Shown piece by piece: positions 1,891 through 46,021 of a stretch of DNA of 64,000 nucleotides. The DNA lies in IMG/VR virus record IMGVR_UViG_3300021400_000080, positions 1 through 64,000 of that record, one strand, 5' to 3'. Every line of letters begins with the position of its first letter. The first letter of the stretch is position 1. The notes under the pieces are model-generated. The model ran no database searches. It worked only from the letters and a program-made list of their open reading frames with translations, and was not told the origin of the DNA. Position numbers and translations under genes: made by a program. The DNA is from a virus (taxonomy: Duplodnaviria > Caudoviricetes).

Positions 1891-2142
1891 TTAACAGACC
1901 TCGGAGATGTCCTATCCCCACTCCTTCTTCCAATAGGAATGAGGTCTCTTGTTCCAACAGGATACCGGCATATCCTTTCCGTTATATGGGATAAGCAATA
2001 GGAATCCGGTCGCACCGATCTCCGCAGCGTCCTTCTTCACCTTAGCCAGTATCTTGGACTTGGGTACTCCCTTGTATATCTTCACATCATGATATTCGGT
2101 AATGCCGAACCAATTTACGATCCATTCCCTTCCGTTAGCCAT
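1891..2142 (-). CDS. Hypothetical protein, probable amber read-through (TAG at 1912-1914)
   Basis: ...KKEWG*DISEVC then TAA that abuts the SD of the next gene. Confidence 0.55.
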
Positions 2143-2175
2143 TCTATCACTTCCGTTTTTTCATACCTTTTCCGT

Positions 2176-2213
2176 ACTGATATAGATTGTCATACATCTC
2201 CCACGATGGCTCA
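2176..2213 (-). promoter_or_regulatory. Bipartite promoter-like element, copy 2
   Basis: Matches 548-585. Confidence 0.55.
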
Positions 2214-2423
2214 CTTGCTCCGGGGTTTGCGTTTCTCGTAGCACTTCGGACACTTCATACCGTGGGTTCCGACAAACCAGCCGTCGTTCTTGATACTGCT
2301 GATTATATCCCTCTGGCTTGCTTCGAGATCGTATTCCCATTCCTCGGACAGACCGCACACGCAGCAAGTCCTACGGACTCCGATGAACATCTCCAGATAA
2401 CCGTTGAATAACGTCTTGGTCAT
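2211..2423 (-). CDS. Small Zn-finger protein
   Basis: CCVC...CPKC motifs. Confidence 0.65.
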   Translation of the reverse strand: MTKTLFNGYLEMFIGVRRTCCVCGLSEEWEYDLEASQRDIISSIKNDGWFVGTHGMKCPKCYEKRKPRSK

Positions 2424-2764
2424 TCTTTCGCACCCTCTCCGCAGCCGAGGAACAGATTATCCATGAGTTCCCTCATTTTCAGCCAGATCTTCTTACCCTT
2501 GGATGCCGGGTATTTCCTATAATATTCGGAAAACTCCGACATATAGATGGACTTCTCGACGATCGGACATACCCTATCGGTCCTGGGTATGTAATATGCG
2601 GTCAGAATGACATCGCTAAGAGTCTCCGACACAAAATACCCGGTAACGAAATACACGCTCTCGTATCCATCGTCCGGTTCATCGCGCACCCATGTCCCTA
2701 CGAGGGTCTTGGCCTTCTCTTCGAGTTTTGCAACGTACTCTCTGCACTCATCTTCGTAGGTCAT
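2420..2764 (-). CDS. Hypothetical protein
   Basis: 114 aa, ATGA overlaps. Confidence 0.7.
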   Translation of the reverse strand: MTYEDECREYVAKLEEKAKTLVGTWVRDEPDDGYESVYFVTGYFVSETLSDVILTAYYIPRTDRVCPIVEKSIYMSEFSEYYRKYPASKGKKIWLKMRELMDNLFLGCGEGAKE

Positions 2765-2925
2765 TCCTTATCCTTCCTCATCACTCCCTGTCCGGGATTG
2801 CTCATCGCAGCAAGGCACATCTGCAACAGCGACTCCGCATCCCCCAGGTCGGCCATGATGTAGGTATCGGTCTCTCTGACGATCTTGTCCTTGGGGATTT
2901 TGACAAACATGTGTTCGTCCGTCAC
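2761..2925 (-). CDS. Hypothetical protein
   Basis: GTG start overlapping the MTase stop; 54 aa. Confidence 0.55.
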   Translation of the reverse strand: MTDEHMFVKIPKDKIVRETDTYIMADLGDAESLLQMCLAAMSNPGQGVMRKDKE

Positions 2926-3587
2926 TCCATCCCCTCCTGACAGATTTCGTAGACGTGTTCGCACAACTTGACGGGGATGCGTGCGCGATCCCTCGCGCCC
3001 TTAATCGCCTGTGTTCCGCACTTGCTCCCCCTTGGCGCACGCTCATGGCATGGGTCTCCGTATCTGCACGGGGTCTTGAACCTCGGATTGGGGTGATTGG
3101 TCCATAGATCGGTCGGCTTCATCCTACTGTCTCCGTACTGGCAGTATGTTGTGGTGTAGCGTGTCATGAATCCATCCCTCTCTCTGTCGAGCATGAATCT
3201 CATGGTCCTCAATCCGGCACGGGGATTCTCGATGAAGAAATATTTGGGTGATAATTCCTCGATGAGTTCCAGCACATGCGCGTTCACACGGTCGCACATC
3301 CTCGCATAGTCGGTCTGCGGGTCCAGTTCCCCCGTCTCCTTGTTCTTGCGCCTGTGATGACCCATAGCCGCGACGGAATAGGAGCTGCAATCCGGGGATG
3401 CCCATATCACGTTCGGCTTGCCGCCGCACATCTTGATGCAATCCTCTGCGGTCAGCGAACCGATGTCAGCGTGGAGGGTGACATCGAATTGCTTATCCCA
3501 ATCCACGGTGTAAACCTCCCATCCGTGGGATCTGAATACATCTCCGACCGAGGACGTTCCGGCAAACAACTCTAACAATTTCGGCAT
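2922..3587 (-). CDS. Compact C5-cytosine DNA methyltransferase
   Basis: Motif I ELFAGTSS, motif IV WASPDCS, motif VI FIENP. Confidence 0.85.
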   Translation of the reverse strand: MPKLLELFAGTSSVGDVFRSHGWEVYTVDWDKQFDVTLHADIGSLTAEDCIKMCGGKPNVIWASPDCSSYSVAAMGHHRRKNKETGELDPQTDYARMCDRVNAHVLELIEELSPKYFFIENPRAGLRTMRFMLDRERDGFMTRYTTTYCQYGDSRMKPTDLWTNHPNPRFKTPCRYGDPCHERAPRGSKCGTQAIKGARDRARIPVKLCEHVYEICQEGME

Positions 3588-7250: not shown

Positions 7251-7472
7251 TCATTCACTCTCCCCGGTGTAGGTCCACAGACGGATGCCCGGCCCTCCGT
7301 GGGGATCGGCTACGAGCCGCGATGTAACGAGGTTGTAGACCTCCATCCTCCGCAGTATCCCCATCAGGTGCGTGCGTGCCGCAGAGATTCTCGCGTTACC
7401 CACGTCAGGGCAGCATAGCCGGGCGAGGTCCTTGGTCGGGATGTCCGGATTCTCCTTGAGTATCGGGATCAT
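7251..7472 (-). CDS. Winged-helix DNA-binding protein
   Basis: IPTKDLARL...ILRRMEVYNLV...LWTY; similar to 7749-7988 and 20448-20699. Confidence 0.6.
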   Translation of the reverse strand: MIPILKENPDIPTKDLARLCCPDVGNARISAARTHLMGILRRMEVYNLVTSRLVADPHGGPGIRLWTYTGESE

Positions 7473-7652
7473 CTAATCCCTCATCGTCATCGCCATTCGA
7501 TCACTCTCCTTGTTTTCCTTGAATACCAATATATTGTCCGGCGAATCCCCTCCGCATGTGTTCCCGAACCTTTTTCTCACTATCTCGACCTCGTTCTCTC
7601 TCACGATGATGACTATCTTCCTTCCCCTGTTCGCTCTCAACCTGAATCTCAT
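7473..7652 (-). CDS. Hypothetical protein ending in TAG directly followed by the in-frame ATG of the wHTH gene
   Basis: Manual ORF MRFRLRANRGRKIVIIV...MRD*(TAG)MIP. Confidence 0.5.
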   Translation of the reverse strand: MRFRLRANRGRKIVIIVRENEVEIVRKRFGNTCGGDSPDNILVFKENKESDRMAMTMRD

Positions 7653-28021: not shown

Positions 28022-28024
28022 AGT

Positions 28025-30977: not shown

Positions 30978-31061
30978 TGGTATTGCTTTAAATACGCACG
31001 CATTGATAAGGAGATTGCGGCCTACCGTTCAAGGGTTGTCGCGGGAGGCCGCCCTCGTACC

Positions 31062-31883
31062 ATGTCAAGGAGTCTTTCTGTTCTGACGGGAATATGTGTC
31101 GGAACGATCATCTTCCTGACCATCGTTTTCCCCGCGCAGATATGCTCCTGTTACAAGGACGTGAAGGTCTCCGAATACGAAGGGGACAGTATCGTATCGT
31201 GGTATATGCCCGTGTTCGACGATTCCGGGATGGTGAAGTTACAATACCCCGTCACCACGGATACCGGTATCACCGAAGAGGATTTCCGGGAGGCGATGGA
31301 TTCCCCCATGTGCCGTAGGATCCTCGGCTCCACGGGGTACGGGATGTCCGACATACCCGACTGCCCTCAAGGGGTCGTGGACGGCATAGACGATGCCCTG
31401 GGACGGGTAGGGATGACCGCTGCGGACCTCACGGAGCATCAGCTGTGCGTGGTGATCTCGGCTTTCGTGAGGACGGGGATAGGATACGCTTACGATGACG
31501 ATCTCTACGGCTGCCCGGATTACGCGGCATCGCCTACGGAGACGGTCTATCTCGGACGGGGTGACTGCGAGGACGTCGCCATATTGTTCGTGTCCATCGC
31601 GCGCGCATACGGGATAGATGCCGTCCTGATAGGTTACTCGGACCATTGTAATGCCGGGATCAGGGTAAGCGGATGGGAAGGGTGGAACACCGTGGAGGGA
31701 TACACGGTCGTGGAATGTACGTCCTCGTATTGGTACGTCGATAGGATCTTCTCACCGGACTGCGGAGAGGGAAGGGTACTCGGTCAATCCGCTGCGGACC
31801 GCATCGTGGACTCCTATGTGACGTTCTGCGACCGTACCCTGCCGTTCAACCCCATTCTTTATATCGCACGGATGCTTTCGTAA
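31062..31883 (+). CDS. Secreted/membrane-anchored transglutaminase-like cysteine protease
   Basis: N-terminal TM; GDCED catalytic Cys, DHCNAG His, VECT acidic residue. Confidence 0.8.
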   Translation: MSRSLSVLTGICVGTIIFLTIVFPAQICSCYKDVKVSEYEGDSIVSWYMPVFDDSGMVKLQYPVTTDTGITEEDFREAMDSPMCRRILGSTGYGMSDIPDCPQGVVDGIDDALGRVGMTAADLTEHQLCVVISAFVRTGIGYAYDDDLYGCPDYAASPTETVYLGRGDCEDVAILFVSIARAYGIDAVLIGYSDHCNAGIRVSGWEGWNTVEGYTVVECTSSYWYVDRIFSPDCGEGRVLGQSAADRIVDSYVTFCDRTLPFNPILYIARMLS

Positions 31884-32345
31884 TTCCGCGATTAGAATGA
31901 TCTCCGAAATCGGTAGGAATTAACGATTTGCCCGCTTGACCGGGCGAAAAGGTCTCCCGGACCGTATTTTGTAATACGGAAGTCCGGTTCTGTATTTCAT
32001 GTATTACGTTCTGTATTGCTTCTGTATTACTTCTGTATTGCACCCCGCTACAATCGCGCGCCTTTAAAGATTTAAACGCTCGCGCGTGCGCGCCCGCAGG
32101 AAAACCTATTGTATGGATATGACCTATATCTGCCCTATATAGTTTTTATAAATTCCTTGTTCTGTATTACACTTTAAATACTCTTTAAATACTAACCTAC
32201 TAAAATGATAATACAGAAGTAATACAGAAGCACTACGGAAGGCAAAAATGTAATACAGAAGCACTACGGAACAAGGGATGCGAGCCGGAAATGTGGGAAA
32301 ATTAGGTATTTCGTTAAATAGTGTGAGAAACGATAAGTCCAACCG
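31884..32345. other. Candidate replication origin (inverted iteron arrays around an AT-rich core)
   Basis: TTCTGTATT at 31988, 32009, 32020, 32031, 32160; inverse AATACAGAA at 32210, 32221, 32252; 11-bp spacing; directly upstream of the helicase. Confidence 0.7.
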
Positions 32346-33851: not shown

Positions 33852-33897
33852 AAAATGCCTTAGAAGGCGATTCCGATAGATTAGGAGGGAGATCACG

Positions 33898-35394: not shown

Positions 35395-35720
35395 CATGGA
35401 GAGAACGCAAGGCAAGGCGCACGATATGGAGATACTGGAACCGCAGGATGTCCCTCATCGGGCGCAGATTGAGGGAGACCACGACATCCGACGAGGATCT
35501 TGTGGGGTAGTGGGATGCGTGTTCCTCCGAGAGCAAGGACAGATTCGTGAAGGACATCAGGTCGCAGTTGGAGAACCAGCACACGGAATACGGGGAGGAC
35601 TACCGCACGTTCGCCATCCTGGACGAGTCGTGCGCGGTCCTGTTGGGTATCGAGTACACCATAGCCATGGCGAGGGTGAGGATAGCCAAGAAGAGGGCAT
35701 CCCGTGTATTCCTCAATTGA
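35391..35720 (+). CDS. Hypothetical protein with in-frame TAG at codon 40 (35508-35510)
   Basis: ATGA overlap with the SNF2 stop; MTWRERK...DLVG*WDACSSESKDRFV...VFLN-TGA; coding-type codon usage on both sides of the TAG. Confidence 0.7.
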
Positions 35721-35724
35721 CCGA

Positions 35725-35753
35725 GTATGTGATTGTATGGAAATGTATATAAT
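35725..35753 (+). promoter_or_regulatory. Promoter-like element shared with the MTase C-subunit gene
   Basis: 18-bp identity plus TATA-like tail. Confidence 0.6.
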
Positions 35754-35793
35754 CGTACGAGATAATCGAGGAATACCGAAAGGTGAAATGCGA

Positions 35794-36531
35794 ATGACAG
35801 ACGAGAATAAAGCGATTCTGGATAAGGTCGCGCAACTGTCCGAGAGGATAGCCGCGTGCGACTGGACCCCGGACGGAGAGTACCCCGTGAAGGGCAAACC
35901 CCTCCGTTATGTCACCGGGAAGAAGATCAAGCGCACCCTCCGTCCTATCCTCAACGAGATGGGCATCGTGTTCCGCTACGACATGGCAGACGTTCAGTCG
36001 CTACCGGCATGCGGGGTCAAGGAGAACCACGTCCTCATCAGGGGATTCGTCACCCTGACCGACAAGGTAACGGGTCAGTCCATCCAATACTCCGTCATAT
36101 CGGAGGGCGCGGATGCGGGCGATAAGGCGGTCATGTCGGGAGCCGCGTATGCGAAGAGGTTGTTCTGGATAAGCAATTTCGACATCGTGGACGGCATGGA
36201 GAACACCGAGGACGAGGGAGGGGTCTCATCCTCCGATGTCGCGGCCAATCTCATCAGACAGGCGATCCCCGAAACCCCCGCACCGACCCCGACCCCCGTC
36301 CATCCCGTCACCGGATCCGCGGGCGAACCCGTCACATCGCCCGGAGAGGGCAACATCGCCAAGATGCAGGTCCGTGCTATGGACAACGCACTGGCGGCCA
36401 TCAAGAGGGCAGACGACGAGGGACGTATCCTCCACGAATACTACGAGAAGGCACTTGAGATCCGCAAGAAGGCATCCTGCAAGGAGGATGTCGAAGCTCT
36501 GCTCAACATCAAGAGGGAACTCGGACTATGA
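35794..36531 (+). CDS. ERF-family single-strand annealing protein
   Basis: LRPILNEMGI...GADAGDKAV..GAAYAKRLF..SNFDI. Confidence 0.75.
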   Translation: MTDENKAILDKVAQLSERIAACDWTPDGEYPVKGKPLRYVTGKKIKRTLRPILNEMGIVFRYDMADVQSLPACGVKENHVLIRGFVTLTDKVTGQSIQYSVISEGADAGDKAVMSGAAYAKRLFWISNFDIVDGMENTEDEGGVSSSDVAANLIRQAIPETPAPTPTPVHPVTGSAGEPVTSPGEGNIAKMQVRAMDNALAAIKRADDEGRILHEYYEKALEIRKKASCKEDVEALLNIKRELGL

Positions 36532-37565
36532 GGAACTATGTGGCTCCCCGCTATCCGTTCACCATCGCGGATAACCGTGTCTACACGGAGGCCGACGAAG
36601 TATACCATGTGACGGGGACATCCATCGGTGCGCTGCTCGGTCAGTCACCGTGGGAATCCCCGTTCACGGCATCCGCGAAACTGCTCGGATTGTGGCTCGA
36701 AGCGGATGTCGGGGACAAGCCGGCAGTGAACACCGGAAAGGTACTCGAAGAGAGGATCATCGACTACGTTGCGGAGAAACACCCGGATGTCGGACAGTTC
36801 TTCCGTGCGGAGGATCTGTTCGCACCCCGCGAGGGGGACCATGAGAAGTGGCCCTCCGATTTCGAGGATGAGGATTTCCACGGCCATGTCGATGGTATAA
36901 TCTCGAAGGACGGAGTGGACTACATCCTTGAGGTCAAGACCGTGAACGAACGCGGCCTTTCCGCATGGAACGGCTCGATCCCCGCCCATTACCTCTGGCA
37001 AGTGTATCTCTACAATCACTTCCTGACCCAACAGGATAAGGCATATTTCGCTATCGGACTCGTGAACAGCGACACCTACGCGAACCCCTATGTGTGGGTC
37101 CCGAACAAGAACAACTGCCTGCTCATCGAGGTCCCGATAGACCGCGAGATGGTAGCCGCCAAGATCGAAGAGGTACGCGCTATCCGTCATAAGATCGTGG
37201 AGGAACGTGCTACGCTCCCCGCTGATTTCAACGATCCGCGCGATAAGGAACTCATGGTACATCTCATGGACATCTCCGGGGACACCGACAGACTGTTGGA
37301 TGCCACCGCACGTTATGAGGAACTCATGAGACAGATCGACGAGGCCGAGTCGAGGATAAAGCCGCTGAAGGACCAAGCCGAGGACTACAAGACACGCATC
37401 AAGGACATGATGGTCGCACATTCGCTGTCCAGGTGCGCCAATCTCAATCTGACTACGCAGACCCGCGAAACGTTCGATTTCGCCAAGGCGCGCGCGGATG
37501 GATTGAACATCGACCCGTACACCAAAACCACAACCACGAAGATATTAAGGAGGTCTAAGATATGA
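36528..37565 (+). CDS. YqaJ/lambda-exonuclease-family nuclease
   Basis: TGTSIGALLG..PWES, GHVDG, LEVKT, YLWQVYLY. Confidence 0.85.
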   Translation: MRNYVAPRYPFTIADNRVYTEADEVYHVTGTSIGALLGQSPWESPFTASAKLLGLWLEADVGDKPAVNTGKVLEERIIDYVAEKHPDVGQFFRAEDLFAPREGDHEKWPSDFEDEDFHGHVDGIISKDGVDYILEVKTVNERGLSAWNGSIPAHYLWQVYLYNHFLTQQDKAYFAIGLVNSDTYANPYVWVPNKNNCLLIEVPIDREMVAAKIEEVRAIRHKIVEERATLPADFNDPRDKELMVHLMDISGDTDRLLDATARYEELMRQIDEAESRIKPLKDQAEDYKTRIKDMMVAHSLSRCANLNLTTQTRETFDFAKARADGLNIDPYTKTTTTKILRRSKI

Positions 37566-38014
37566 TTACACCTACACCCTGGATTCTAAGCAGCATGGTC
37601 GCAAAAGCAACCGTCCCTCTCTGCGAGGGCAACCACACCCTTCAGATCACGGAGGCATCGTTCAAGGACGATGAGAACTACTACTCCCTCACCCTCAAGT
37701 CCCTCGACGAAGAGGACGAGCAGTCCACCCTCCGCTACTACATCATCAAGAAGGACGGGACCAGGAACGAACAGGCCATCGGCACGCTGAACAAACTCGG
37801 ACACTGCATTTTCGGACTTCCGGAGGATCAGGTCGGAATCCCCAACCCGGAGGACATCGTGAACGGCATCGTCAGGGGATTCGTCAAGCACAATGTCTAC
37901 GAGGGCAAGGAGTTCGTGAACATCTACGAGTACACCCCCGTAGACAAAAAGACCCTTGAGATCGCCAAGGAATCCGGCATCACCGTTCTGGACCAGTACG
38001 CAATCGAGGGATGA
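37562..38014 (+). CDS. Putative OB-fold ssDNA-binding protein (DUF669-like)
   Basis: EGNHTLQITEA...VKHNVYEGKEFVNI; located in the recombination module. Confidence 0.55.
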   Translation: MITPTPWILSSMVAKATVPLCEGNHTLQITEASFKDDENYYSLTLKSLDEEDEQSTLRYYIIKKDGTRNEQAIGTLNKLGHCIFGLPEDQVGIPNPEDIVNGIVRGFVKHNVYEGKEFVNIYEYTPVDKKTLEIAKESGITVLDQYAIEG

Positions 38015-38304
38015 GTATGGTATTCGTCCGTACATCCACCATCAAGAACAAGGGGAACGGACGGGTAATCTACATCCCCGCAGAATGGGGATTCAAGGCG
38101 GGGGATTGGGTCACTATCCGCATGGCTAAAACCGGTGCGACGTGGCCCTATTCCCTCACGACCCGTATCAAGCCGCAGAAAACGGGATCGGATTACATCA
38201 ATATCCCCCCCGAATGGCCGTTGTTCATCGGGGATATGGTCGATGTGAAGATCACCTATGCAGACATCCCCAGGACGGAGATGGCGAAGGATGCCAACCC
38301 CTGA
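38011..38304 (+). CDS. Tandem AbrB-like DNA-binding protein
   Basis: IYIPAEWGFKAGDWV and INIPPEWPLFIGDMV repeats. Confidence 0.6.
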   Translation: MSMVFVRTSTIKNKGNGRVIYIPAEWGFKAGDWVTIRMAKTGATWPYSLTTRIKPQKTGSDYINIPPEWPLFIGDMVDVKITYADIPRTEMAKDANP

Positions 38305-38620
38305 ACAGCTCATCAAGAGGGACCTCAAGAGGTTCATCGAGGGCATCGGGGGTTATTGGGTATCCGTCCAAGGGGGACCCGGCTCCAAGCCGGGGGACCC
38401 CGACATCATCGCATGTATCGACGGAAGGTTCATCGGCATCGAGGCCAAGACCGACACGGGAAGATAGTCGGAGATCCAAAAGCACCGCTGCGAACAGATA
38501 ATGTCGGCAGGGGGAGTCTATCTTACTGTGCGGTCGTTGGAGGACCTTAGACAAGGACTCCGCGATGCGGGGATTCCCGGACTCCGAGACGGGCGCGAAA
38601 CCCGTCCTAAAACCCCTTAA
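38291..38620 (+). CDS. VRR-NUC (PD-D/ExK) nuclease/resolvase with in-frame TAG at codon 59 (38465-38467)
   Basis: GDPDIIACIDGRFIGIEAKTDTGR*SEIQKHRCEQIMSAGGVYLTVRSLEDL; the conserved SxxQ...GG...RS.ED half lies after the TAG. Confidence 0.9.
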
Positions 38621-38692
38621 CCACTTTTCGATTATCCATTAGTCCTAACACCACGAAATACCTTAAATAGTCCATATTTTGATTCATTCATC

Positions 38693-38935
38693 ATGGCAGA
38701 TATGATGGACAAAACCATTAGCGCGATACTCACTGCGTTCGTCGCGGTGATATTGATCGCTTCTGCGTTCATCCCTACTGCCATTCAGCAGATCGACACT
38801 CTCAACGACAAGTACGGGTCGGATGTAGCGGGTTACACCGCACTCATCTCGACGGTCATCATTGTGACGATTGTCGGTATCATAATCGGCATAGTGAAAA
38901 CCTACTCCTCCGGAAAAGGCGATGGAGACCGTTGA
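38693..38935 (+). CDS. Two-helix hydrophobic protein, spindle-virus capsid-like (minor/divergent)
   Basis: Two hydrophobic helices, F-I-P turn motif, 80 aa. Confidence 0.6.
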   Translation: MADMMDKTISAILTAFVAVILIASAFIPTAIQQIDTLNDKYGSDVAGYTALISTVIIVTIVGIIIGIVKTYSSGKGDGDR

Positions 38936-38962
38936 TCTGACGAATATCGGAAGGTATGAACA

Positions 38963-39205
38963 ATGAACACCGAAGATTTCACCAGCAAAGTTGTCGGCAT
39001 CGTGATTGCCGTCATCGTGATCGCGGTCGTTGCCATCCCCATCATCAATGGCATGATCGGAACCGACGGAACCCCTGAGGGATCCACCTACCCCATCCAG
39101 TCCGGCTCCACCGAAGCTACCATCATCAAGGTCATCCCCATCTTCCTCATCCTGGCCGTCCTGATGGGAGTCGTCTACATGTTCCTCAACGGAAAGAAGA
39201 ACTGA
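38963..39205 (+). CDS. Spindle-shaped-virus-type major capsid protein (SSV1 VP1/VP3-like)
   Basis: VVGIVIAVIVIAVVAIPIIN...TIIKVIPIFLILAVL parallels SSV1 VP1 as I recall it (LFIFILIGIVLLPVIV...TLLNLVPLFYILVLI). Confidence 0.7.
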   Translation: MNTEDFTSKVVGIVIAVIVIAVVAIPIINGMIGTDGTPEGSTYPIQSGSTEATIIKVIPIFLILAVLMGVVYMFLNGKKN

Positions 39206-39218
39206 AGGAGGCATGAAA

Positions 39219-39434
39219 ATGAACACCGAAGATTTCACCAGCAAGGTTGTCACCGTTGTCATCGCGGTCATCGTGATTGCTGTCGTGGCCATCCCCGTCA
39301 TCAATCAGGCGGCCGAGGAAAGCGGAGCCGACAACACCACCAAGACCATCCTGGGAGTCATTCCCATCTTCCTCATCCTGGCCGTCCTCATGACCGTGGT
39401 CTACATGTTCATGAACGGCAAGAAGGACAACTGA
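39219..39434 (+). CDS. Second spindle-virus-type capsid protein paralog
   Basis: Near-identical helices to 38963-39205; two 26-bp identical DNA blocks. Confidence 0.7.
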   Translation: MNTEDFTSKVVTVVIAVIVIAVVAIPVINQAAEESGADNTTKTILGVIPIFLILAVLMTVVYMFMNGKKDN

Positions 39435-39444
39435 TCGCAGAACC

Positions 39445-39478
39445 ACGGGGGGTAGGGTTTACCCCCCAACCTTTTTTC
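39445..39478 (+). terminator. GC hairpin plus T-tract after the capsid operon
   Basis: GGGGGGTAGGGTTTACCCCCC-AACCTTTTTT. Confidence 0.7.
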
Positions 39479-39616
39479 ACGACTGCGTAGTTTTTATACA
39501 TCCCACTCATTAGGAGGATTGAGGTTGCCTACATCCTCCGGGGGGTTCTCGATTCCTCCCCCCGATATTCCTTTTTTGTATGCACGTTTTATAAACCACG
39601 TTTCCGATAATCGAGT

Positions 39617-42127
39617 ATGCAGACAGGAATGAAAGCGGGTCTTGCAATCGTCCTCGCGGTATTCCTCACGGGCATCGTGGGGTTCCTCACCGCAGTCGTG
39701 CCGGAGGACGAGGAAAGGACCTATTACGACCAAGTGAGCGATCTGACTCCGATTGTGGATGCCAGCGCAATCGACTCGTACACGGAATATAACCCGGTGA
39801 CGAATGTCAGCGGATGGGCGAACATAGAAGGTGTGACGATCCCCACATTAACGACTGGCATATCTGCATATCCGTACAGATATACCACTGCCGGAGAGGA
39901 TAGCGATATATCCAGATCGGTGAAGTTCGCAGCAGTCCTCGATGAATATCCTGATGATCCAGAGAAGTCATATTTCTGGCCCGTTGCTAAAATCTATTCG
40001 TTGTATGAATCCTCAATCCCTAACAGTATCGAGTACAACGATGTAGAGATAGCAACGTCGGGCAGAGGTAATATAAGCGTAACCAAGGAGTATCAGGAAG
40101 GGGAATCGTTCGCAATCTGCATACTCCACATAGATACGCAAACGGCACAGCCAATCCATCAATTCACATACGAGGTCCACGTTAGTCCAACGTCTCAAAA
40201 CAATTTCCGTCAGACCATCTCGACACTGGCGGTATTGGATAACCAGACATCGAGGACGATAACCGTGGGATGGGGGGAGAACTTCGAGTTACAGATCAAT
40301 GTGTCATTGGGCGCACATCAGACCATCCGTGTGGACATGTTATCCCACGAAGGATATAGAGGACAGAATATCTTGTTAGATAATGGCGAGATCGTCAATG
40401 GTTTTTCATCGAATCCGGTATCGCCTAAAGAATATTACGGAGGGGGATTGGATCAGCAGTATGCCCAAGGCGCACCTTCCACACGCACGACCTCTATCTC
40501 CAATTATCTTGTAGTGGACGGCCGCCATCTGACTACCGAATACGGAGCATACACCGTATATCCGCTGTCCATGTATTTCCCGCAGTCGGCATCCATCCAG
40601 GACGGGACCTTCATATCCATAGCCGGACTGAAATATGCGATGCCCACAACGTTCTATCATGGCACACGGACATGGGACGGCGGAGATTCAGGAGATGATG
40701 TATCGGGAACGTGCCGTACCAACATATCCTCGATAGGGTATGACCATCTTGTTTATGTCAAGGATAACGAGAAGTGGTATCCGGGAGTATTGTCCGAGAA
40801 CGGGTTGTATTATGAGGCCGACATGACTAAACCGGGATATGGTATCGACGAGATATTCATGTTCGCATACGGGTTCAAGCAAGCTGCGACAATCAATGCA
40901 ACGGAGATCGAGGTACAGTACGAATATATCGACGGTACTAAATTCGTTACAGTTGCAGACGGTATCACTGCGAAATGGTCCAATTACATGGACAGTACGG
41001 TAGGCGGCAAGACGGTGACGGTTCCCTATAACAACGGAGCAATCGTGCTTTTGACCGAGCCGGGAACAACCATATCGTCCGATAAAGTGTTCTATAAGGA
41101 CACCGACGGCAACGTGACCCAAGGTAGTATGACACTTACCGTTCCTACATCCATCCCCTACTCGATGGCCCGTGTGACGTTGGACTTCCAGAACAATACC
41201 TACTATGCACAGGGTATCGTGTGGGGATCCATCGACGAGGACGAGAGGGGAACGGGCAACTGGACCCTCCGTCCTTACCAGTATCCGATCTCAATCGGAC
41301 TGAATGGCATCCCTGACGTATCCTACGTCCAGGGGATCTCCGTTGAAAAAGCCGGGGGAACCAAGGTATTCGTTCTTGAGACCAGCGTGCAGACCGACCC
41401 GATGGGCAGATTATGGGGTGATCCCACCATCTATCTCGGATACTTCTTCCCTGACTACTTCACCCACGACAGTGCAACCGGCAACACGGGAGTACCTACG
41501 ACCGCCATCCGTATGCTCATCAACGGAGTTGTGAGTTACGGGACCTCGCTGACTATCAACGGACAGTATATGCCCGTGGCAGACGGGAACATCACGTTCA
41601 CCTACTACACCTACGAGACGGAGACCATTCCCTCCACCGACCCGAACGTCCCGCCTACAACCAACACGATCACCGTCACCAACGAGGGCAACATGCCGGT
41701 CAAGGGTATGGCGATAGATTGGGAGGATGGGCATGTCTATCTTGTGTTCACCGAACAGGGTAAGACCCGTTACGATCTCGGAGAATACGATACGACCGCG
41801 GCCAATGTGGTCATCGCGGGTACGGACACAGGGAAGGACACCGTTGTAACGGACATCATAAGCGGAACGGGGACATGGTATTGGCAGTCCAACCTCTACA
41901 CGATTAACCACGAGATCGAAACGGTCCTCAAACTCGACCTCACACAAGGTTTGTCGGGTTGGGGAATGACGTTACAGGTCTCGATGCTGCTCTTCGCGGG
42001 TATGCTCATCGTGGGGGTTGCCATCGTCCACTACTACTACCGCGACTCCGACGAACCGATGGGAATCCTTGATTGGGTTATTATAGGATTAGCGATATTG
42101 TTATGCTTAGGAGTTGCAGCAATATGA
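39617..42127 (+). CDS. Large membrane-anchored virion protein (tail/terminal fibre candidate)
   Basis: 836 aa; N-terminal TM, Thr/Tyr/Gly-rich beta body, two C-terminal TMs. Confidence 0.7.
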   Translation: MQTGMKAGLAIVLAVFLTGIVGFLTAVVPEDEERTYYDQVSDLTPIVDASAIDSYTEYNPVTNVSGWANIEGVTIPTLTTGISAYPYRYTTAGEDSDISRSVKFAAVLDEYPDDPEKSYFWPVAKIYSLYESSIPNSIEYNDVEIATSGRGNISVTKEYQEGESFAICILHIDTQTAQPIHQFTYEVHVSPTSQNNFRQTISTLAVLDNQTSRTITVGWGENFELQINVSLGAHQTIRVDMLSHEGYRGQNILLDNGEIVNGFSSNPVSPKEYYGGGLDQQYAQGAPSTRTTSISNYLVVDGRHLTTEYGAYTVYPLSMYFPQSASIQDGTFISIAGLKYAMPTTFYHGTRTWDGGDSGDDVSGTCRTNISSIGYDHLVYVKDNEKWYPGVLSENGLYYEADMTKPGYGIDEIFMFAYGFKQAATINATEIEVQYEYIDGTKFVTVADGITAKWSNYMDSTVGGKTVTVPYNNGAIVLLTEPGTTISSDKVFYKDTDGNVTQGSMTLTVPTSIPYSMARVTLDFQNNTYYAQGIVWGSIDEDERGTGNWTLRPYQYPISIGLNGIPDVSYVQGISVEKAGGTKVFVLETSVQTDPMGRLWGDPTIYLGYFFPDYFTHDSATGNTGVPTTAIRMLINGVVSYGTSLTINGQYMPVADGNITFTYYTYETETIPSTDPNVPPTTNTITVTNEGNMPVKGMAIDWEDGHVYLVFTEQGKTRYDLGEYDTTAANVVIAGTDTGKDTVVTDIISGTGTWYWQSNLYTINHEIETVLKLDLTQGLSGWGMTLQVSMLLFAGMLIVGVAIVHYYYRDSDEPMGILDWVIIGLAILLCLGVAAI

Positions 42128-42390
42128 TGTCACCGCAGGAGTTCATCGACATGCTTGCCCAGGCCTTCTTCCAGGGCAATACGCAGATCGCGGGCATAGT
42201 CGTGTTCACCGCTGTCCTCGCCATCATATACCTCCTGTTCGCGCAGAGGAATATCACCGTAGGTCTTATCCTTACCCTCCCTACGACCCTCGTGTTCTCG
42301 CTGATGGGTATTCTGCCGGAGGTCCTGACCATCCTCGTGGTGATCGTAACCATCCTCGCCCTCGTCCATAAGTTCAAGGAGATGTCGTGA
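42124..42390 (+). CDS. Small multi-TM virion membrane protein
   Basis: 88 aa, hydrophobic, ATGA-coupled. Confidence 0.75.
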   Translation: MMSPQEFIDMLAQAFFQGNTQIAGIVVFTAVLAIIYLLFAQRNITVGLILTLPTTLVFSLMGILPEVLTILVVIVTILALVHKFKEMS

Positions 42391-43619
42391 TGATAAGCAG
42401 TATGGGGGGTTCCATGCTCGCCAATGCCCTTTCGGGCGGCGGCGGAGCATCGGAATGGATGCACAAATGGATGCTCATAGGTTTGGGTATCCTGGTATTC
42501 ACCCCCCTGCTGTTCAGTCTGTGGTTCCCTACGGAGTATGAAGGCGAATATGCGGATGTTCAGAACGATATAGAGGAACAGTACCTCCACATGACCGGAT
42601 CCTACTCCACACCCCAACAGAACATCTGGACCCTGACGGGAATCTATACACCATACAATTCCGAGAAATTCGGCTGGACCGATGATGGCTGGCTGTATGG
42701 TTCGGAGGTCAAGACCTATTCCCCGTCGCAGTATCAATCGACCGATCAATTCCCCGGAACGCTGACAGTGAAAAAAGCGGATAACGGGATCTGGTATTAC
42801 ACGTCCGTACCCAACAACTTCCAGGGGATAACCCTCGCCACATGGGACGGGGATAAGGTCACCAATCCGAAGGAGGCATCCGTCTATTCGAGCATCTATT
42901 TCGATAATGCCCACAAGTCGGACAGATTCTTCACCACTACCACGAAAACGGAGACCGCCCAGGGATACTACTACGATTATTCGGGATACAGATACACCTA
43001 TCAGCCGTTGAGCAACTACAATATCGACGTGTCAGGTACGATCACCAAGGTGGATAGGGATACGACATCCCTTTCCCTGATATGGTATCAGTATTCCACG
43101 TTAAGCGGCATAGCCGGGCAGCTCACTATATCGGGCAGCGATTCAGGGGTCAGTTATATCACGTCGGATGACATCATAAGAGTGTTCAACTCCGCGAACA
43201 GCACCGCAGTGTTCGACATGACCTTCAACGGGGTTCCCATGCATCTCCTTATCAGAATGGATCCCTCGCGCCTCGCGTGGTTGAGCGTAGCGGATTGTTA
43301 CAACAGCGGATACTGGAACGTCATGGTATACAGCGATGCGGTCGCGGCATCCCTCTCCGGGGACACCTACGAGTTCAACATCAATACGATGTGGGACACC
43401 ATCGTCAATATCTTCACATTCAACCTCGCCAATGAATACGACATCGACGGTTGGGAGGGATTCGTGGTATCCGTCCTGTTCTCGATGGTCCTCTACTCCG
43501 TCCTGCTCATCATCGCTATGGATCACCCCTTCGTGTTCATAATCATCGGACTGATAGGACTCATTCAGGCAGCTACATCGTTCCTCGGCAGCGGTTCGGG
43601 GTTGTTCGATTTCCTGTGA
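42387..43619 (+). CDS. Membrane-anchored structural protein
   Basis: 410 aa; N-terminal TM, beta-rich body, C-terminal TMs. Confidence 0.75.
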   Translation: MMISSMGGSMLANALSGGGGASEWMHKWMLIGLGILVFTPLLFSLWFPTEYEGEYADVQNDIEEQYLHMTGSYSTPQQNIWTLTGIYTPYNSEKFGWTDDGWLYGSEVKTYSPSQYQSTDQFPGTLTVKKADNGIWYYTSVPNNFQGITLATWDGDKVTNPKEASVYSSIYFDNAHKSDRFFTTTTKTETAQGYYYDYSGYRYTYQPLSNYNIDVSGTITKVDRDTTSLSLIWYQYSTLSGIAGQLTISGSDSGVSYITSDDIIRVFNSANSTAVFDMTFNGVPMHLLIRMDPSRLAWLSVADCYNSGYWNVMVYSDAVAASLSGDTYEFNINTMWDTIVNIFTFNLANEYDIDGWEGFVVSVLFSMVLYSVLLIIAMDHPFVFIIIGLIGLIQAATSFLGSGSGLFDFL

Positions 43620-43663
43620 TAAACCTCTTAATCCTTTTATATGGACAACCGCGATACGAAAGT

Positions 43664-44080
43664 ATGGCAGAATATTGGCTCTATTGGAGCAAGTTCGAGG
43701 ACAACAATAAACGTCCCGGACTGCCCGGAGGATTCAGGACCCTAAAGGATGCGCGCGAATGTGCGTATGAGAACGTTGTCACCAACCATCCCATCGAGAT
43801 CGACGGGTCGGGCGAGGTCATCAAGAAGATCAAGGGCATCGTCTACTCCGAGAAGTCGGGTCGTTCGGGACCTGTCCGTCAGCGTGTCCTCAAGGACGGT
43901 TCCGTGTCCAAGACCAAGATTTTCGTCAATCCCGTCAATACCGCAGCCAAACTTAAAGCCAAGACTGCATCCAAGACATCCTCCAAGACCAAGACCGCGC
44001 CCAAGAAGAAACGCAAATACGGGGAGATCCTGGGCGATGCAGCGGTCGAGTTCGGGTCCGGACTCCTTTCACATCTCTGA
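43664..44080 (+). CDS. Small basic protein (paralog family) with Lys-rich tail
   Basis: FRTLKDARECAY; KTASKTSSKTKTAPKKKRK. Confidence 0.7.
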   Translation: MAEYWLYWSKFEDNNKRPGLPGGFRTLKDARECAYENVVTNHPIEIDGSGEVIKKIKGIVYSEKSGRSGPVRQRVLKDGSVSKTKIFVNPVNTAAKLKAKTASKTSSKTKTAPKKKRKYGEILGDAAVEFGSGLLSHL

Positions 44081-44160
44081 AACCCCTTATCCCCCCTACG
44101 GGGGGAATCTACCCGTCCTTTTTATATGCGCTATCGTGATTACTTCATAAAGTGATAGCC

Positions 44161-45744
44161 ATGCTCAACAAGAAGATCGTATCCGTCCTCGCAGTCACGC
44201 TCATGCTGACTATGGGGGTCGGAGTTGTTTTCATCGGTAATGACGAGTCGGAGGCAGTCACGTCCGAAATGCCTGTTTCGTCAGTCGTGGGGGACGTGGA
44301 GACGTTGTTCTATACTTCCGTCCCGCCTGTACTGACAATGACTCAAAAGGTCGCTAACGGTACTTATTTCAATATCACCAACACATATAACGGACCTTGG
44401 GAATTTCTCATCAAAGGGATTAACGGCACGGCTACGGCAATCGGTTCGACTTCAGATGGCCTTCTTCATACTGCCCAGGGAATCTCTGGAACGTTATCGA
44501 CCAACCTGTCCACCCTTTCTATCGAGTGGGTGGCGCACAATGAGACAGAGGGAGTGGTTGAAGAAGAAGAATATTCATCTGTTTTCACCGTGGTAGACAC
44601 GGGAAGTTCGCAGAACAACCCCTATCTCGATACAATCTCCCTACCAGTCAAGATCTTCCAAATGACACAGGACTACTATGCTAACGTGGGAATCACGGTC
44701 AACCTCACCCACGAGACTGTGAACGGTCTTGAATACGGTGTGACTTCAGTCACATCTGGTTTCGGCTTGACTGTGGACAGCAACACTACAAGTCTATCGG
44801 GAACAATCTCGCACGCTGGAACGATTACCGTGGAGACTTATGTTACGGATGGACATGATATTGAGGAAGAAACTCACACAATCTACGTTACCGACTATAC
44901 TCACGCGGATGTCCGTATGATCGGAGGGGAGACGTGGACGTACACCCCCTCGACCAATATGACCTCTGTCCTGTCCATCTCCGGCACGGCTACCTCCTGG
45001 GTCTCCCTGACATCGGGAACGGTCAGTGGGACCGCGCCCACGAACACTTCCGTTGGGCAGACCTACGACCTCACCATAACCGCCTCGACCTCCGACCCCA
45101 ATCAGAACGTCACGCAGACGGTCACGTTCACCGTGGACCCGCAGATCACCCTGACCGCACCCGCCACTTACACCGTCCAGTTCGGCACGGATACCAGCAA
45201 CGTCCTCGGCAGCAACTTCGAGGACGGAACCAGGAACATCTACTCCATCACCGGGGGTACTGCCACGGGATTCACCGTGAACGCGGCAACGGGGGTATTG
45301 GGATGGAATAACCCCTCTGCGGGAACGATCACATTCACCGCTGCATCCCCCTACACATACACCAGCGGCGCGACCAACACGGCAACGGCTACCGTGGACG
45401 TGACCGTGACGGGTATCCTCACGGCATCCGTCTCCAGCACGCTCTACCTCGTTACGGGGAAAACGGTTCCCAACACCCCTGCCGAGGCAGTCACCCTCAA
45501 CCACAATGATGTCGGGGTTGGAACCTACACCTGGGCGGTCGTGGGAACGAACAACAGCGGAGTCACAGTGGCATCGGACGGCACATTGGGGGGTACTCCG
45601 GGAGCCGTCGGCAGCTACACCGTAACCATTCGCTGCACGTCCGTGGTAGGGAGTACGACACAGACCGCTGACACTACCCTCAACATCGTCATCGTCCAGG
45701 TCCTCGCTTTCACGTCCTTGCCCTCTTCGGGAACCGTCAGGTGA
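44161..45744 (+). CDS. Secreted Ig-like repeat (He_PIG-type) adhesin-like protein
   Basis: Signal peptide ending NDESEA; repeats such as VASDGTLGGTPGAVGSYTVTI. Confidence 0.75.
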   Translation: MLNKKIVSVLAVTLMLTMGVGVVFIGNDESEAVTSEMPVSSVVGDVETLFYTSVPPVLTMTQKVANGTYFNITNTYNGPWEFLIKGINGTATAIGSTSDGLLHTAQGISGTLSTNLSTLSIEWVAHNETEGVVEEEEYSSVFTVVDTGSSQNNPYLDTISLPVKIFQMTQDYYANVGITVNLTHETVNGLEYGVTSVTSGFGLTVDSNTTSLSGTISHAGTITVETYVTDGHDIEEETHTIYVTDYTHADVRMIGGETWTYTPSTNMTSVLSISGTATSWVSLTSGTVSGTAPTNTSVGQTYDLTITASTSDPNQNVTQTVTFTVDPQITLTAPATYTVQFGTDTSNVLGSNFEDGTRNIYSITGGTATGFTVNAATGVLGWNNPSAGTITFTAASPYTYTSGATNTATATVDVTVTGILTASVSSTLYLVTGKTVPNTPAEAVTLNHNDVGVGTYTWAVVGTNNSGVTVASDGTLGGTPGAVGSYTVTIRCTSVVGSTTQTADTTLNIVIVQVLAFTSLPSSGTVR

Positions 45745-45748
45745 CGGA

Positions 45749-46021
45749 ATGAAAGTGGATCCCGTAGCGATATTGGCCGTCGCCCTCTTCCTCGCGGGGA
45801 TGGCTGGCATAGCGATAGCGCACGCAGAAACCTACGACAACCCTCAAGACGAACCTAACCCCGTTGAACCGGAGATCGTGTCGCAGACGGAGGGATAGAC
45901 CCTCTACCGCCTTGACCTTCAGGGCGGTCCTCTCTACTACTACGAATGTGACACCGAGGACGGCACGATCACCAAGATAGTGGCGATAAAGACCGTCACG
46001 ATGGATATAGAAGTCGCGTAA
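45749..46021 (+). CDS. Small secreted/TM protein with in-frame TAG at codon 50 (45896-45898)
   Basis: MKVDPVAILAVALFLAG...QTEG*TLYRLDLQGGPLYYYECDTEDG...EVA-TAA; the TAA overlaps the AAACCTCTT end motif. Confidence 0.7.

Follow-up and report, generated by a model that had tools for sequence, protein, structure and literature searches.

In-frame TAG codons in the virus genome

The DNA analysed here (the window) is a stretch of 64,000 nt, positions 1 to 64,000 of IMGVR_UViG_3300021400_000080 (G000), a complete virus genome of 75.7 kb (~76 kb). The features that concern us are the following.

1891..2142, minus strand: 83-aa ORF with TAG at 1912-1914 and an extension of just 6 codons
4040..4300, minus strand: 86-aa ORFan with an in-frame TAG at 4181-4183
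7251..7652, minus strand: two ORFs (59 and 73 aa) with the TAG at 7473-7475 joining them in frame
16492..16677, minus strand: C5-methyltransferase target-recognition mini-ORF with TAG at 16630-16632, codon 16 of 61
16982..17167, minus strand: degenerate target-recognition mini-ORF with TAG at 17039-17041, codon 43 of 61
24700..62143, plus strand: leaderless-type genes with a TATA-like box 25-34 nt upstream and no Shine-Dalgarno, e.g. at 28372, 30762, 39617, 44152, 57678, 61443 and 61844
35391..35720, plus strand: 109-aa gene, function unknown, with an in-frame TAG at 35508-35510
38258..38620, plus strand: VRR-NUC/Hjc-like nuclease gene with TAG at 38465-38467, residue 70 of 120
45749..46021, plus strand: predicted 90-aa secreted or membrane-anchored small protein with an in-frame TAG at 45896-45898

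In-frame TAG codons were confirmed on the coding strand at 1912, 4181, 7473, 16630 and 17039, in minus-strand genes where TAG appears as CTA on the plus strand, and at 35508, 38465 and 45896, where it is read directly on the plus strand. The first-pass annotation had listed all of these but 7473, and its seven sites stand; 7473 is likewise in frame. As it had also proposed, the frames run on past TAG, to a TAA or TGA at 1891, 4040, 7251, 16492, 16982, 35720, 38620 and 46021. These closing stops lie next to the following start or overlap it slightly, or they adjoin a promoter or terminator motif.

In a crude gene call of G000, self-trained and strand-coherent, 135 ORFs ended on TGA (102), TAA (26) or TAG (7), and all seven TAG-terminated ORFs remain open in frame beyond the TAG, in agreement with the earlier reading that nearly all genes end on TGA or TAA. 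Two extra TAG candidates were identified at 16453, inside the window, and at 73705, outside it; genome-wide read-through here means 8-10 codons per 75.7 kb. No gene holds more than one TAG and the genes of 836 and 1334 aa have none, confirming that the codon is rare and that long genes are free of it. Read-through of TAG never led to an out-of-frame overlap of more than 60 nt with the next gene (0/9), compared with 29% of control read-throughs of TGA or TAA (P about 0.04). Per-codon coding scores were 0.04-0.31 in TAG extensions, compared with 0.22 in gene bodies and -0.09 in control extensions. Given the overlap test and these scores, the TAG pattern goes beyond chance.

Genes interrupted by TAG

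The nuclease gene, which probably begins at the ATG at 38291, matches Pfam Hjc over residues 21-83 and phrog_93 over residues 11-103, the TAG being included in both matches. It has 28 full-length homologs, and an alignment with 24 homologs revealed a PD-(D/E)xK motif with an invariant catalytic D47...E62-x-K64, and four further invariant residues 3' of the TAG (Q74, R77, I81 and G86). The TAG codon follows the catalytic lysine by six residues and, in an AF2 model (pLDDT 86.5), lies in the loop preceding helix 72-83. A Foldseek search with this model gave VRR_NUC 4qbn as the best PDB match (92 aligned columns, TM 0.81 on the target), and the Hjc structure 2wcw was also matched. The TAG at 38465 is shared with the sister virus G001, and pN/pS downstream of it is 0.10. 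It sits in the middle of the nuclease fold and splits it, and the assignment of this TAG to a conserved VRR-NUC region was upheld by the Pfam, PHROG, homolog and structural comparisons alike.

The 109-aa gene overlaps the SNF2 stop with its start and the next start with its end. Its TAG at 35508 is kept in G001 and in G003:C155, and comparison with the latter revealed 11 synonymous changes and one non-synonymous change, 6:0 after the TAG, with a pN/pS after the TAG of 0.20. A GTG at 35547, 13 codons past the TAG, is a possible independent start for the downstream part. The protein encoded at 45749..46021 begins with an N-terminal hydrophobic helix, and its sole likely folded part is 3' of the TAG; a weak Pfam match at residues 47-73 crosses the TAG. 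The codon at 45896 is shared with G001, with a pN/pS after it of 0.20, and AACCTCTT comes after the closing stop at 46019-46021.

The first-pass annotation had placed two further TAGs in methyltransferase repeats, and here the evidence is moderate only. A tblastn search aligned residues 8-56 of the mini-ORF at 16492..16677 with the interior of an intact 603-aa C5 methyltransferase of the relative L093 (45% identity, E 5e-7); the residue facing the TAG is Val. This mini-ORF has a Shine-Dalgarno-like stretch ahead of its ATG, and a true stop at 16630 would leave a 15-aa peptide. In the mini-ORF at 16982..17167, which has GGTGGAGG ahead of its ATG, the TAG at 17039 occupies the I/L position of the paralogous motif G-[IL]-[SC]-P-T-I, and the motif resumes after it. 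No homolog outside the virus was found for this second mini-ORF; it may be a decaying copy, and the odd array that holds both mini-ORFs could be partly decayed.

The remaining sites are less clear. Read-through at 4181 covers 141 nt that would otherwise be empty, up to a TAA shortly ahead of the GGAAGTGA-ATG of the following gene; the coding score of this extension is only 0.07, no homologs of the ORFan were found, and a 39-aa fragment of the gene is on record, split off by standard gene calling. The extension at 1912 overlaps the Shine-Dalgarno-like GAGG of the next gene, which has no bearing either way. The TAG at 7473 sits between a Shine-Dalgarno-like GAGGGA and an ATG, the downstream start at 7472. 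In the relatives L088 and L089 the upstream gene closes 8 codons earlier on a TGA, where G000 has CGA; the junction of ...GAGGGATTAG and ATG is kept, and the TAG falls in a short leader or spacer. The TAG of G000 may lie simply in the spacer.

Taken together, these data support translation through TAG in three to five genes at the least. The case for read-through is good at 38465, 35508 and 45896 and moderate at 16630 and 17039; it is weak at 1912 and 4181, while 7473 is ambiguous.

TAG codons in related viruses

G001 shares the TAGs at 35508, 38465 and 45896, and has three additional in-frame TAGs, which lie opposite GAA (Glu), TAC (Tyr) and TTG (Leu) in intact G000 genes. The TAGs are real and are shared by genomes that were assembled independently. 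When the 312 codons that follow these six TAGs are taken together, pN/pS is 0.25 (binomial p 1e-13), and before the TAGs it is 0.33; the downstream sequence is under in-frame purifying selection.

Gln in homologs at the TAG sites had been named in the first-pass annotation as an observation against pyrrolysine. At 38465 the aligned homologs do have mostly Gln (17/24), with Leu or Val also occurring; the residues at other sites are Val (16630) and, in G000 at the extra sites of G001, Glu, Tyr and Leu. At these few sites the presence of Gln does not discriminate, because the residues vary from site to site and are mostly one-step neighbours of TAG: CAG, TAC and TTG are one step away, GAA is two steps away, and Val is not a one-step neighbour.

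In seven IMG/VR relatives that share the replication module, TAG accounts for 3 of 108 stops, as against 127 of 840 in unrelated phages that encode this nuclease (Fisher p 9e-5).

The G000-G001 comparison also documents in nature, on a small scale, how TAG is gained and lost where the residues are Glu, Tyr, Leu and Gln/Leu/Val, which bears on the drift of a stop codon into sense use.

An archaeal virus and its candidate host

Sixteen archaeal TATA-like octamers begin 25-34 nt before ATGs, where about 0.5 are expected from their genome-wide density. These promoters, together with leaderless starts, support an archaeal virus, as had been proposed. ARAGORN and Rfam searches of the 75.7 kb genome found no tRNA genes and gave no Rfam hit, a search of the same genome for PylS and PylB found neither, and terminase, portal and capsid had no match in it.

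The best two genome matches for the nuclease family are the MAGs G002 and G003, which fall within a single GTDB order; PylS is present in 160 of the 261 genomes of this order. Both MAGs encode PylS and PylB above NCBIfam cut-offs. G003 has pylT-pylS-pylB, its tRNA-Pyl(CUA) having been found by ARAGORN, and G002 encodes an MttB with one internal TAG. The labelling or purity of G002 is doubtful, because its NCBI title is 'Dialister hominis'; its 90.7-kb virus-related element is a free circular contig and not an integrated provirus. G003 includes four short contigs that are 87-97% identical to G000, and resembles it in GC content (0.52-0.54 vs 0.51) and in stop usage (TGA 125, TAA 15, TAG 6 vs 102, 26, 7). 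TAG stops make up ~4-5% of calls in both, and the viral ones are all open. What links the virus to G003 is the binning of short metagenomic contigs, together with agreement in composition and in stop usage. CRISPR spacers and pyl genes had been suggested as routes to the host; a search of 38 kb against the GTDB order gave no spacer match, and pylT, pylS and pylB are present in G003.

The earlier proposal that the virus borrows host pyrrolysine (Pyl) stood in so far as the virus is archaeal, its relatives and fragments occur in pyl-carrying Methanomassiliicoccales-type MAGs, and TAG is read through. From this we infer both the Pyl residue and a Methanomassiliicoccales-type methanogen as host, with G003 as the candidate.

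Interpretation of the TAG codons

We consider it likely that G000 is a complete non-tailed dsDNA virus of a Methanomassiliicoccales-type methanogen, and that host tRNA-Pyl passively decodes its few TAGs, as pyrrolysine. Hosts of this type would carry tRNA-Pyl(CUA), PylRS and PylBCD and would rarely or never use TAG as a stop. The viral genome brings no translation genes for TAG decoding. Host Pyl-tRNA would then decode the in-frame TAGs, and full-length viral proteins would presumably bear pyrrolysine at these sites. The virus would have been purged of TAG terminators, as the host is, and its in-frame TAGs would be tolerated, mostly one-step, mutations of ordinary codons at permissive positions rather than functional Pyl sites. 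Reliance on Pyl is to be expected for the virus from the biology of such a host.

It is unlikely that TAG is ambiguous in this virus and acts as a switch, yielding truncated and full-length products in a ratio set by the host supply of Pyl-tRNA, so that methylamine metabolism would govern the nuclease and methyltransferase modules. The first-pass annotation had suggested this, with these modules full-length only in particular states of host growth, and the present data lend it no support. Such a switch would fit the dual stop/Pyl meaning of TAG and the demand-tuned pyl expression in Methanosarcina acetivorans (PMC12626013), as well as the retention of TAG at three sites in G000 and G001, and in three genomes at 35508. 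However, at 85-96% nucleotide identity this conservation is barely above expectation by descent, and the differences between G000 and G001 at three sites are what neutral gain and loss predicts. TAG genes are spread across early, replication and structural regions without a functional pattern, no common sequence context was found 3' of the TAG sites, homolog residues at TAG are variable (Q/L/V, V, E, Y, L), and TAG decoding seems to be constitutive in the host lineage (PMC4153887; 10.1101/2024.09.30.615893). There is a rather small chance that the viral TAGs are non-neutral, tying the full-length junction-resolving nuclease, some methyltransferase specificity modules and a secreted virion-region protein to host Pyl-tRNA, in which case virus development would sense methylamine-dependent host physiology, or else locking the virus to Pyl-decoding hosts.

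That the TAGs are genuine stops seems very improbable; the genes would then be split, cut short or turned into pseudogenes, and the frames downstream would be small genes in their own right or would not code at all. The downstream starts at 7472 (ATG, GAGGGA) and possibly 35547 (GTG), the mere 6 codons added at 1912, the weak coding score at 4181 and the splitting of these genes by standard callers, which left the 39-aa record, all point in that direction. Yet a stop at 38465 would delete helix 72-83, strand 87-91 and the four invariant residues, a part kept at pN/pS 0.10; at 16630 it would leave the 15-aa peptide and at 45896 a signal helix with a linker. The frames past six TAGs evolve as coding sequence, and none of the nine read-throughs clashes with the next gene. 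There is hardly any probability that TAG stands for a canonical amino acid, e.g. Gln as in code-15 phages, by way of a Pyl-independent suppressor tRNA. The Gln in 17/24 homologs at 38465 would suit this, and TAG-to-Gln recoding is well documented for gut phages (PMC9523058; 10.1101/2021.08.26.457843), but Val, Glu, Tyr and Leu occur at other sites, the virus genome has no tRNA gene, and TAG is used very sparingly, no gene having more than one, and is not frequent in late genes. The archaeal promoters and the tRNA-Pyl(CUA) of the associated MAGs likewise speak against this reading.

Implications

We found no published description of Pyl-type TAG read-through for a virus. A preprint on Pyl decoding names transposases, Cas proteins and a casposon as carriers of Pyl, and the words virus and viral are absent from it (10.1101/2024.09.30.615893). 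Decoding of viral TAGs as pyrrolysine would mean that the phenomenon reaches beyond cellular genes and transposable elements and includes a complete virus, and would add a viral resolvase-type nuclease, methyltransferase modules and a secreted protein to the list of predicted Pyl proteins. Because such genomes are called with code 11, their genes are split or truncated in public virus catalogues; re-calling with TAG as sense would mend them. Internal TAGs in combination with very few TAG stops would offer an inexpensive signal for predicting Pyl-decoding archaea as the hosts of viruses.

Comparison with known systems

The nuclease gene shares the alpha-beta-beta-beta-alpha-beta fold and the D47...E62-x-K64 motif with VRR-NUC and archaeal Hjc resolvases (4qbn, 2wcw); its homologs have Gln, Leu or Val where the viral gene has TAG.

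The recoded phages resemble the virus in having a standard stop inside genes, which are fragmented by standard gene calling (Borges et al., preprint 10.1101/2021.08.26.457843; Peters et al., PMC9523058). Their code (code 15, TAG=Gln; code 4, TGA=Trp) is unlike that of their hosts, usually with suppressor tRNAs of their own, and the recoded codon is frequent, mainly in late genes, whereas the virus matches its candidate host's code, has no tRNA and holds about 8-10 TAG codons in 75.7 kb. Recoded phages sometimes carry release-factor genes.

In M. acetivorans (Shalvarjian et al. 2025, PMC12626013) the same Pyl machinery would be at work, and UAG outside methylamine methyltransferase genes is readable without a PYLIS element. 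UAG has two meanings there and still terminates many genes, against a TAG-stop share of about 4-5% of calls in the virus and its candidate host. Methanosarcina is the only case for which demand-tuned dual stop/Pyl decoding has been documented (PMC12626013). 'Ca. Methanomethylophilus alvus' (M. alvus) has 1.6% TAG stops, Pyl in essential proteins and 16 extra predicted Pyl proteins (Borrel et al. 2014, PMC4153887), and in M. alvi proteomics places Pyl at TAG genome-wide (10.1101/2024.09.30.615893).

The proposed Genetic Code 34, with its internal-TAG (Category 1) genes, is like the virus in its near-absent TAG terminators and TGA-dominated stops (10.1101/2024.09.30.615893; PMC4153887), and in having few TAGs, in ordinary non-methyltransferase genes and at non-conserved positions, with no downstream clash. 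By the features of this code, TAG is rare as a terminator in the virus, overlaps of more than 60 nt (Category 4) do not occur, and homology extends to both sides of the TAG at 38465, at 16630 relative to the L093 methyltransferase, and at the three G001 TAGs relative to intact G000 genes. Decoding under Genetic Code 34 needs pylT and pylS; the virus is without pyl genes, and its code would therefore be borrowed.

In-frame TAG codons and the frames beyond them

The first-pass annotation had described seven in-frame TAG codons and taken them as read-through by a pyrrolysine (Pyl) code borrowed from the host. All were confirmed as TAG on the coding strand, those at 1912, 4181, 16630 and 17039 in minus-strand genes and those at 35508, 38465 and 45896 in plus-strand genes. 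As had been noted, each frame runs on to a TAA or TGA; these stops are adjacent to the start of the next gene, a TATA box or the AACCTCTT-hairpin end motif, or overlap it slightly.

Genes were called with a home-made, self-trained codon score, limited to the dominant strand per block. By this call the viral terminators are 102 TGA, 26 TAA and 7 TAG, the last comprising five of the seven sites, a possible terminal TAG at 7473 and one at 73705, outside the window; 16630 and 38465 dropped out of the code-11 call. Stop counts from longest ORFs without a coding score were discarded because antisense ORFs were picked up. An out-of-frame clash of more than 60 nt with the next gene was seen in none of nine TAG read-throughs, compared to 29% of the TGA/TAA controls (P ~0.04). 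The coding score per codon was 0.04 to 0.31 in TAG extensions, against -0.09 in control extensions and 0.22 in gene bodies. Both controls support a genuine TAG pattern. The TAG at 73705 ends a small ORF (73675-73839 of the full record, equal to L104:11675-11839, minus strand) that has a 9-codon in-frame extension, a stretch missing from the sister virus genome G001.

The TAG of the nuclease gene

The strongest of the TAG cases is 38465, in the gene for a small nuclease. The TAG is residue 70 and is crossed by two matches, to Pfam Hjc at residues 21-83 and to the phrog_93 endonuclease at 11-103. All 28 homologs found, of 93-146 aa, are uninterrupted, and when 24 of these are aligned, the invariant Q74, R77, I81 and G86 lie downstream of the TAG and are retained in the viral protein. 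In an AlphaFold model (pLDDT 86.5) the E-x-K strand and helix 72-83 are joined by a loop that contains the TAG; among PDB entries the model is closest to a VRR_NUC domain of 93 residues, with 92 columns aligned, and Archaeoglobus Hjc comes next. The TAG splits the nuclease fold, and a protein stopped at residue 69 would be without a helix, a strand and a second helix of the core.

Conservation, selection and turnover of TAG codons

The TAGs are real and recur across independent assemblies. G001 (IMGVR_UViG_3300031994_005341; 46 kb), which is collinear with our virus at ~85-90% nucleotide identity, has TAG at the same codon in all three plus-strand genes, and the 35508 TAG is also kept on a 1.1-kb contig of the metagenome-assembled genome G003. 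Between this contig and the window, the 35508 gene differs by 11 synonymous and one non-synonymous change, the ratio past the TAG being 6:0. G001 also has TAGs of its own.

Additional TAG codons of G001 and the codons opposite them in the present virus
283-513: gene with TAG opposite GAA (Glu)
From 268 across the terminal repeat: gene with TAG opposite TAC (Tyr)
63947-64207: gene with TAG opposite TTG (Leu)

The comparison of the two genomes thus points to both gain and loss of TAG. As a selection test, Nei-Gojobori counting was applied to the pool of six genes that have a TAG in one or both genomes. Past the TAG, pN/pS was 0.25 (312 codons) and the synonymous share was far over neutral (binomial p 1e-13); ahead of it, pN/pS was 0.33 (202 codons). 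Evolution past the TAG is therefore that of a coding sequence read in the TAG's frame and under selection.

In the alignments, Gln/Leu/Val, Val, Glu, Tyr and Leu face the TAG sites, not Gln alone, and most are one-step codon neighbours of TAG, at variable positions. A six-frame scan of TAG-aligned residues over all relatives was uninformative, as related DNA also aligns in antisense and out-of-frame translation. By the facing residues the TAGs resemble nonsense mutations that are tolerated because the background suppresses them, and not a reassignment to one amino acid. Tolerated nonsense mutations under suppression were proposed for 'Ca. M. alvus' (PMC4153887).

Comparative support is present at five of the seven sites. 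The products of the 35508 and 45896 genes belong to no known family. A stop at 16630 would leave a peptide of 15 residues; over 49 residues, the frame shares 45% identity (E 5e-7) with an internal part of the intact C5 methyltransferase (603 aa) of the related virus L093, where Val stands opposite the TAG. The 17039 TAG occupies the Ile/Leu place of a G-[IL]-[SC]-P-T-I motif that recurs in about ten adjacent mini-ORFs, its own mini-ORF being a degenerate copy with no outside homolog. The 4181 gene is an ORFan, for which phmmer against 1.84 billion representatives returned nothing beyond its own fragment of 39 aa and a spurious match to a repeat protein, and the read-through extension at 1912 is only six codons.

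The case of 7473 is ambiguous. Its homologs match the 73-aa downstream piece only. In two related contigs (L088 and L089) the upstream gene ends on a TGA eight codons before, where our virus has CGA. The junction of GAGGGATTAG with ATG is kept in both contigs, so that their TAG separates a Shine-Dalgarno-like element from the start of the 73-aa gene.

A split C5 methyltransferase

The sites 16630 and 17039 lie between two parts of a C5 methyltransferase gene.

18861-20135, minus strand: C5 methyltransferase motifs I-VIII (Pfam positions 1-227)
15853-16434, minus strand: C5 methyltransferase motifs IX-X (Pfam positions 253-322)

The halves are separated by ~2.4 kb with some ten short overlapping ORFs, preceded by Shine-Dalgarno-like stretches and spread over three frames (15853-20135 in all). 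Most bear an R-x-Y...G-[IL]-[SC]-P-T-I motif of target-recognition type; they may be free-standing specificity subunits, frameshift products or the result of decay. The C5 enzyme of L093 is intact, and relatives of the N-terminal part share the catalytic core alone, not the TAG-bearing modules. An extra in-frame TAG (16453-16455, minus strand) is found 6 codons 5' of the ATG of the C-terminal ORF; should this ORF begin at TTG 16491, just past the preceding TGA, it would gain ...IPTITG-TAG-..., which resembles the module motif.

Genome organization and gene content

The window is the first 64,000 bases of an IMG/VR record of 75,709 bp, which has a 107-bp direct terminal repeat and is rated complete. 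Minus-strand genes extend to ~24.7 kb; beyond this point most genes are on the plus strand. G001 is collinear straight over the terminal repeat (window 1-527 and 74912-75709 of the full record versus G001 4088-5303), and one gene crosses the junction, running from 268 down to 2 and resuming at 75708; this means that the genome does not have fixed linear ends but is circular or circularly permuted. G001 is classed as a provirus by IMG/VR, with no evident host flank on the contig.

Genes assigned to known families
Helicase and exonuclease genes: D5-type primase-helicase, SNF2 helicase, YqaJ-type exonuclease
Nuclease: small VRR-NUC/Hjc-like
DNA methyltransferases: N4/N6 and C5 types
BspA-type leucine-rich-repeat protein: 1334 aa
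Other genes: serine recombinase, Zot/AAA-type ATPase, HNH endonuclease

Three tandem genes for 73-80 aa (38693-39434) are followed by genes for large proteins of 410-1334 aa (39617-61383), among which the 1334-aa protein has the Pfam BspA-type match; for the five others that were tested, neither Pfam nor PHROGs gave a match. None of ten large candidate virion-region proteins, eight of which are located inside that region, matched the capsid, portal or terminase families of PHROGs. No terminase, portal or HK97-type capsid was found among all proteins tested, which fits a non-tailed archaeal virus. The virus genome yielded no tRNA gene, Rfam match, PylS or PylB, and INPHARED phages gave no match by DNA or by the 836-aa protein.

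Archaeal promoters and gene ends

TATA-like octamers (TTTATATA, TTTAAATA and similar) were found 25-34 nt 5' of 16 start codons, versus ~0.5 expected, in genes without a Shine-Dalgarno sequence. A TATA box at such a distance without a Shine-Dalgarno sequence is the archaeal promoter layout for leaderless mRNAs; the bacterial -10 box of a leaderless gene lies ~10 nt upstream. The viral promoters are archaeal.

Five early minus-strand genes (4627-5175, 9420-9698, 10160-10387, 11965-12150 and 24465-24698) share one near-identical upstream cassette, consisting of an AT-rich TATA-like box (TTATTTATA...GCTATATA), followed by ACAACGAGCCG... and by a leader ending GAGGAATCGAAA-ATG. It looks like a repeated early promoter with 5' UTR, in contrast to the plus-strand genes, whose promoters are leaderless and TATA-only. 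At 28300-28371, 30700-30761, 44090-44151, 46019-46082 and 61384-61442, a G/C hairpin (e.g. CCCCC-loop-GGGGG), sometimes with AAACCTCTT ahead, comes after the gene end, and the T-run behind it directly adjoins the TATA box of the next gene, so that terminator and promoter form one compact unit. From one of these units, a piece of 25-29 nt (30075-30103) has exact copies in two genomes of the presumed host order.

The associated archaeal lineage and its code

Scanning one genome per GTDB species with the nuclease alignment gave two metagenome-assembled genomes, G002 and G003, as the best matches. The G002 contig (CAVICI010000002.1) is circular, 90.7 kb (90,731 bp), with an 831-bp terminal repeat; the related G003 contig is 45 kb. 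A module of SNF2, YqaJ and nuclease genes is common to the virus and both contigs, in the same order and with ~40% amino-acid identity.

Both genomes encode a PylS of 273 residues, over the NCBIfam cut-off, with PylB adjoining. In G003, a tRNA-Pyl(CUA) adjoins pylS (ARAGORN; the same program was blank on the virus), and the trimethylamine methyltransferase (MttB) of G002 has one internal TAG. The lineage associated with the virus thus carries a Pyl cassette. G002 and G003 belong to one GTDB order, in which PylS is over the cut-off in 160 of 261 genomes. NCBI titles G003 'uncultured Methanomicrobiales archaeon' and G002 'Dialister hominis'; given the archaeal-type PylS/PylB of G002, its TAG-bearing MttB and the order that it has in common with G003, the latter label looks wrong or the bin mixed. 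Both genomes have PylS in its short form, which lacks the N-terminal domain, with best PDB matches to 8ifj and 7r6o and then 6jp2 and 6ezd. We take these entries to be PylRS of ISO4-G1 and Methanomethylophilus alvus, the first two being ISO4-G1-type, in which case the order would be Methanomassiliicoccales.

At least four short contigs of G003 (C155, C233, C226 and C109) are 87-97% identical to the virus. Over 142 kb of other G003 contigs, stops are 125 TGA, 15 TAA and 6 TAG and GC is 0.51-0.54; stop usage is statistically indistinguishable from that of the virus (102, 26 and 7; GC 0.51). TAG stops number 3 of 108 in seven IMG/VR relatives with the same replication module, compared to 127 of 840 in unrelated phages retrieved by the same nuclease motif (p 9e-5). 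From binning, composition and the near-identical short contigs we infer that G003-like archaea are the host. CRISPR spacers were sought with 38 kb of the virus in the order's 261 genomes; only 25-31-nt matches were found, none in repeat arrays. A 25-nt sequence at 43817-43841 (GTCATCAAGAAGATCAAGGGCATCG), in a 532-nt stretch without a called gene, is identical in five genomes of the order and is not within a repeat array.

Decoding of the viral TAG codons

Taken as a whole, the virus is probably translated with host Pyl-tRNA at its in-frame TAGs. It would infect a Pyl-decoding member of the GTDB order and be translated wholly by host machinery, with host Pyl-tRNA(CUA) winning the competition at UAG. 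Like its host, the virus would have lost TAG terminators over time, and occasional in-gene mutations to TAG would persist where a bulky lysine derivative is tolerated. The borrowing proposed in the first-pass annotation gains from the archaeal promoters and from the Pyl cassette of the associated lineage, while the host and the inserted Pyl are themselves reached by inference; read-through, too, is presumably efficient.

The same annotation had suggested that full-length products might depend on growth conditions. UAG is indeed read both ways in Methanosarcina acetivorans, with pyl expression tuned to demand (PMC12626013), but here such regulated or ambiguous read-through seems unlikely: the TAG genes are scattered, the sites turn over between sister genomes, the aligned residues are variable, there is no common context 3' of the TAGs, and decoding in the Methanomethylophilus lineage appears constitutive (PMC4153887; 10.1101/2024.09.30.615893). 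That the TAGs are true stops or mark pseudogenes is very improbable, being at odds with the nuclease fold and with selection past the TAG. A Gln suppressor as in code 15 is harder still to credit, since the genome has no tRNA gene, TAG is rare and the setting is archaeal.

'Genetic Code 34' was proposed for archaea including Methanomethylophilus, Methanogranum and Methanoplasma; that preprint describes Pyl in transposases, Cas proteins and a casposon, with viruses unmentioned (10.1101/2024.09.30.615893). The full-text literature searched on pyrrolysine together with archaeal viruses, proviruses or phages contained no report of a Pyl-using virus; the main methanogen-virus compendium was outside this coverage and an earlier mention is possible. 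The mechanism would be the known one of the host, the new point being the dependence of a complete virus on Pyl decoding. As in the archaea of Code 34, the virus has few TAGs, mostly internal, and no read-through clash with a neighbour (10.1101/2024.09.30.615893). It is unlike the recoded bacteriophages, whose code differs from that of the host and which carry suppressor tRNAs and use the codon heavily.
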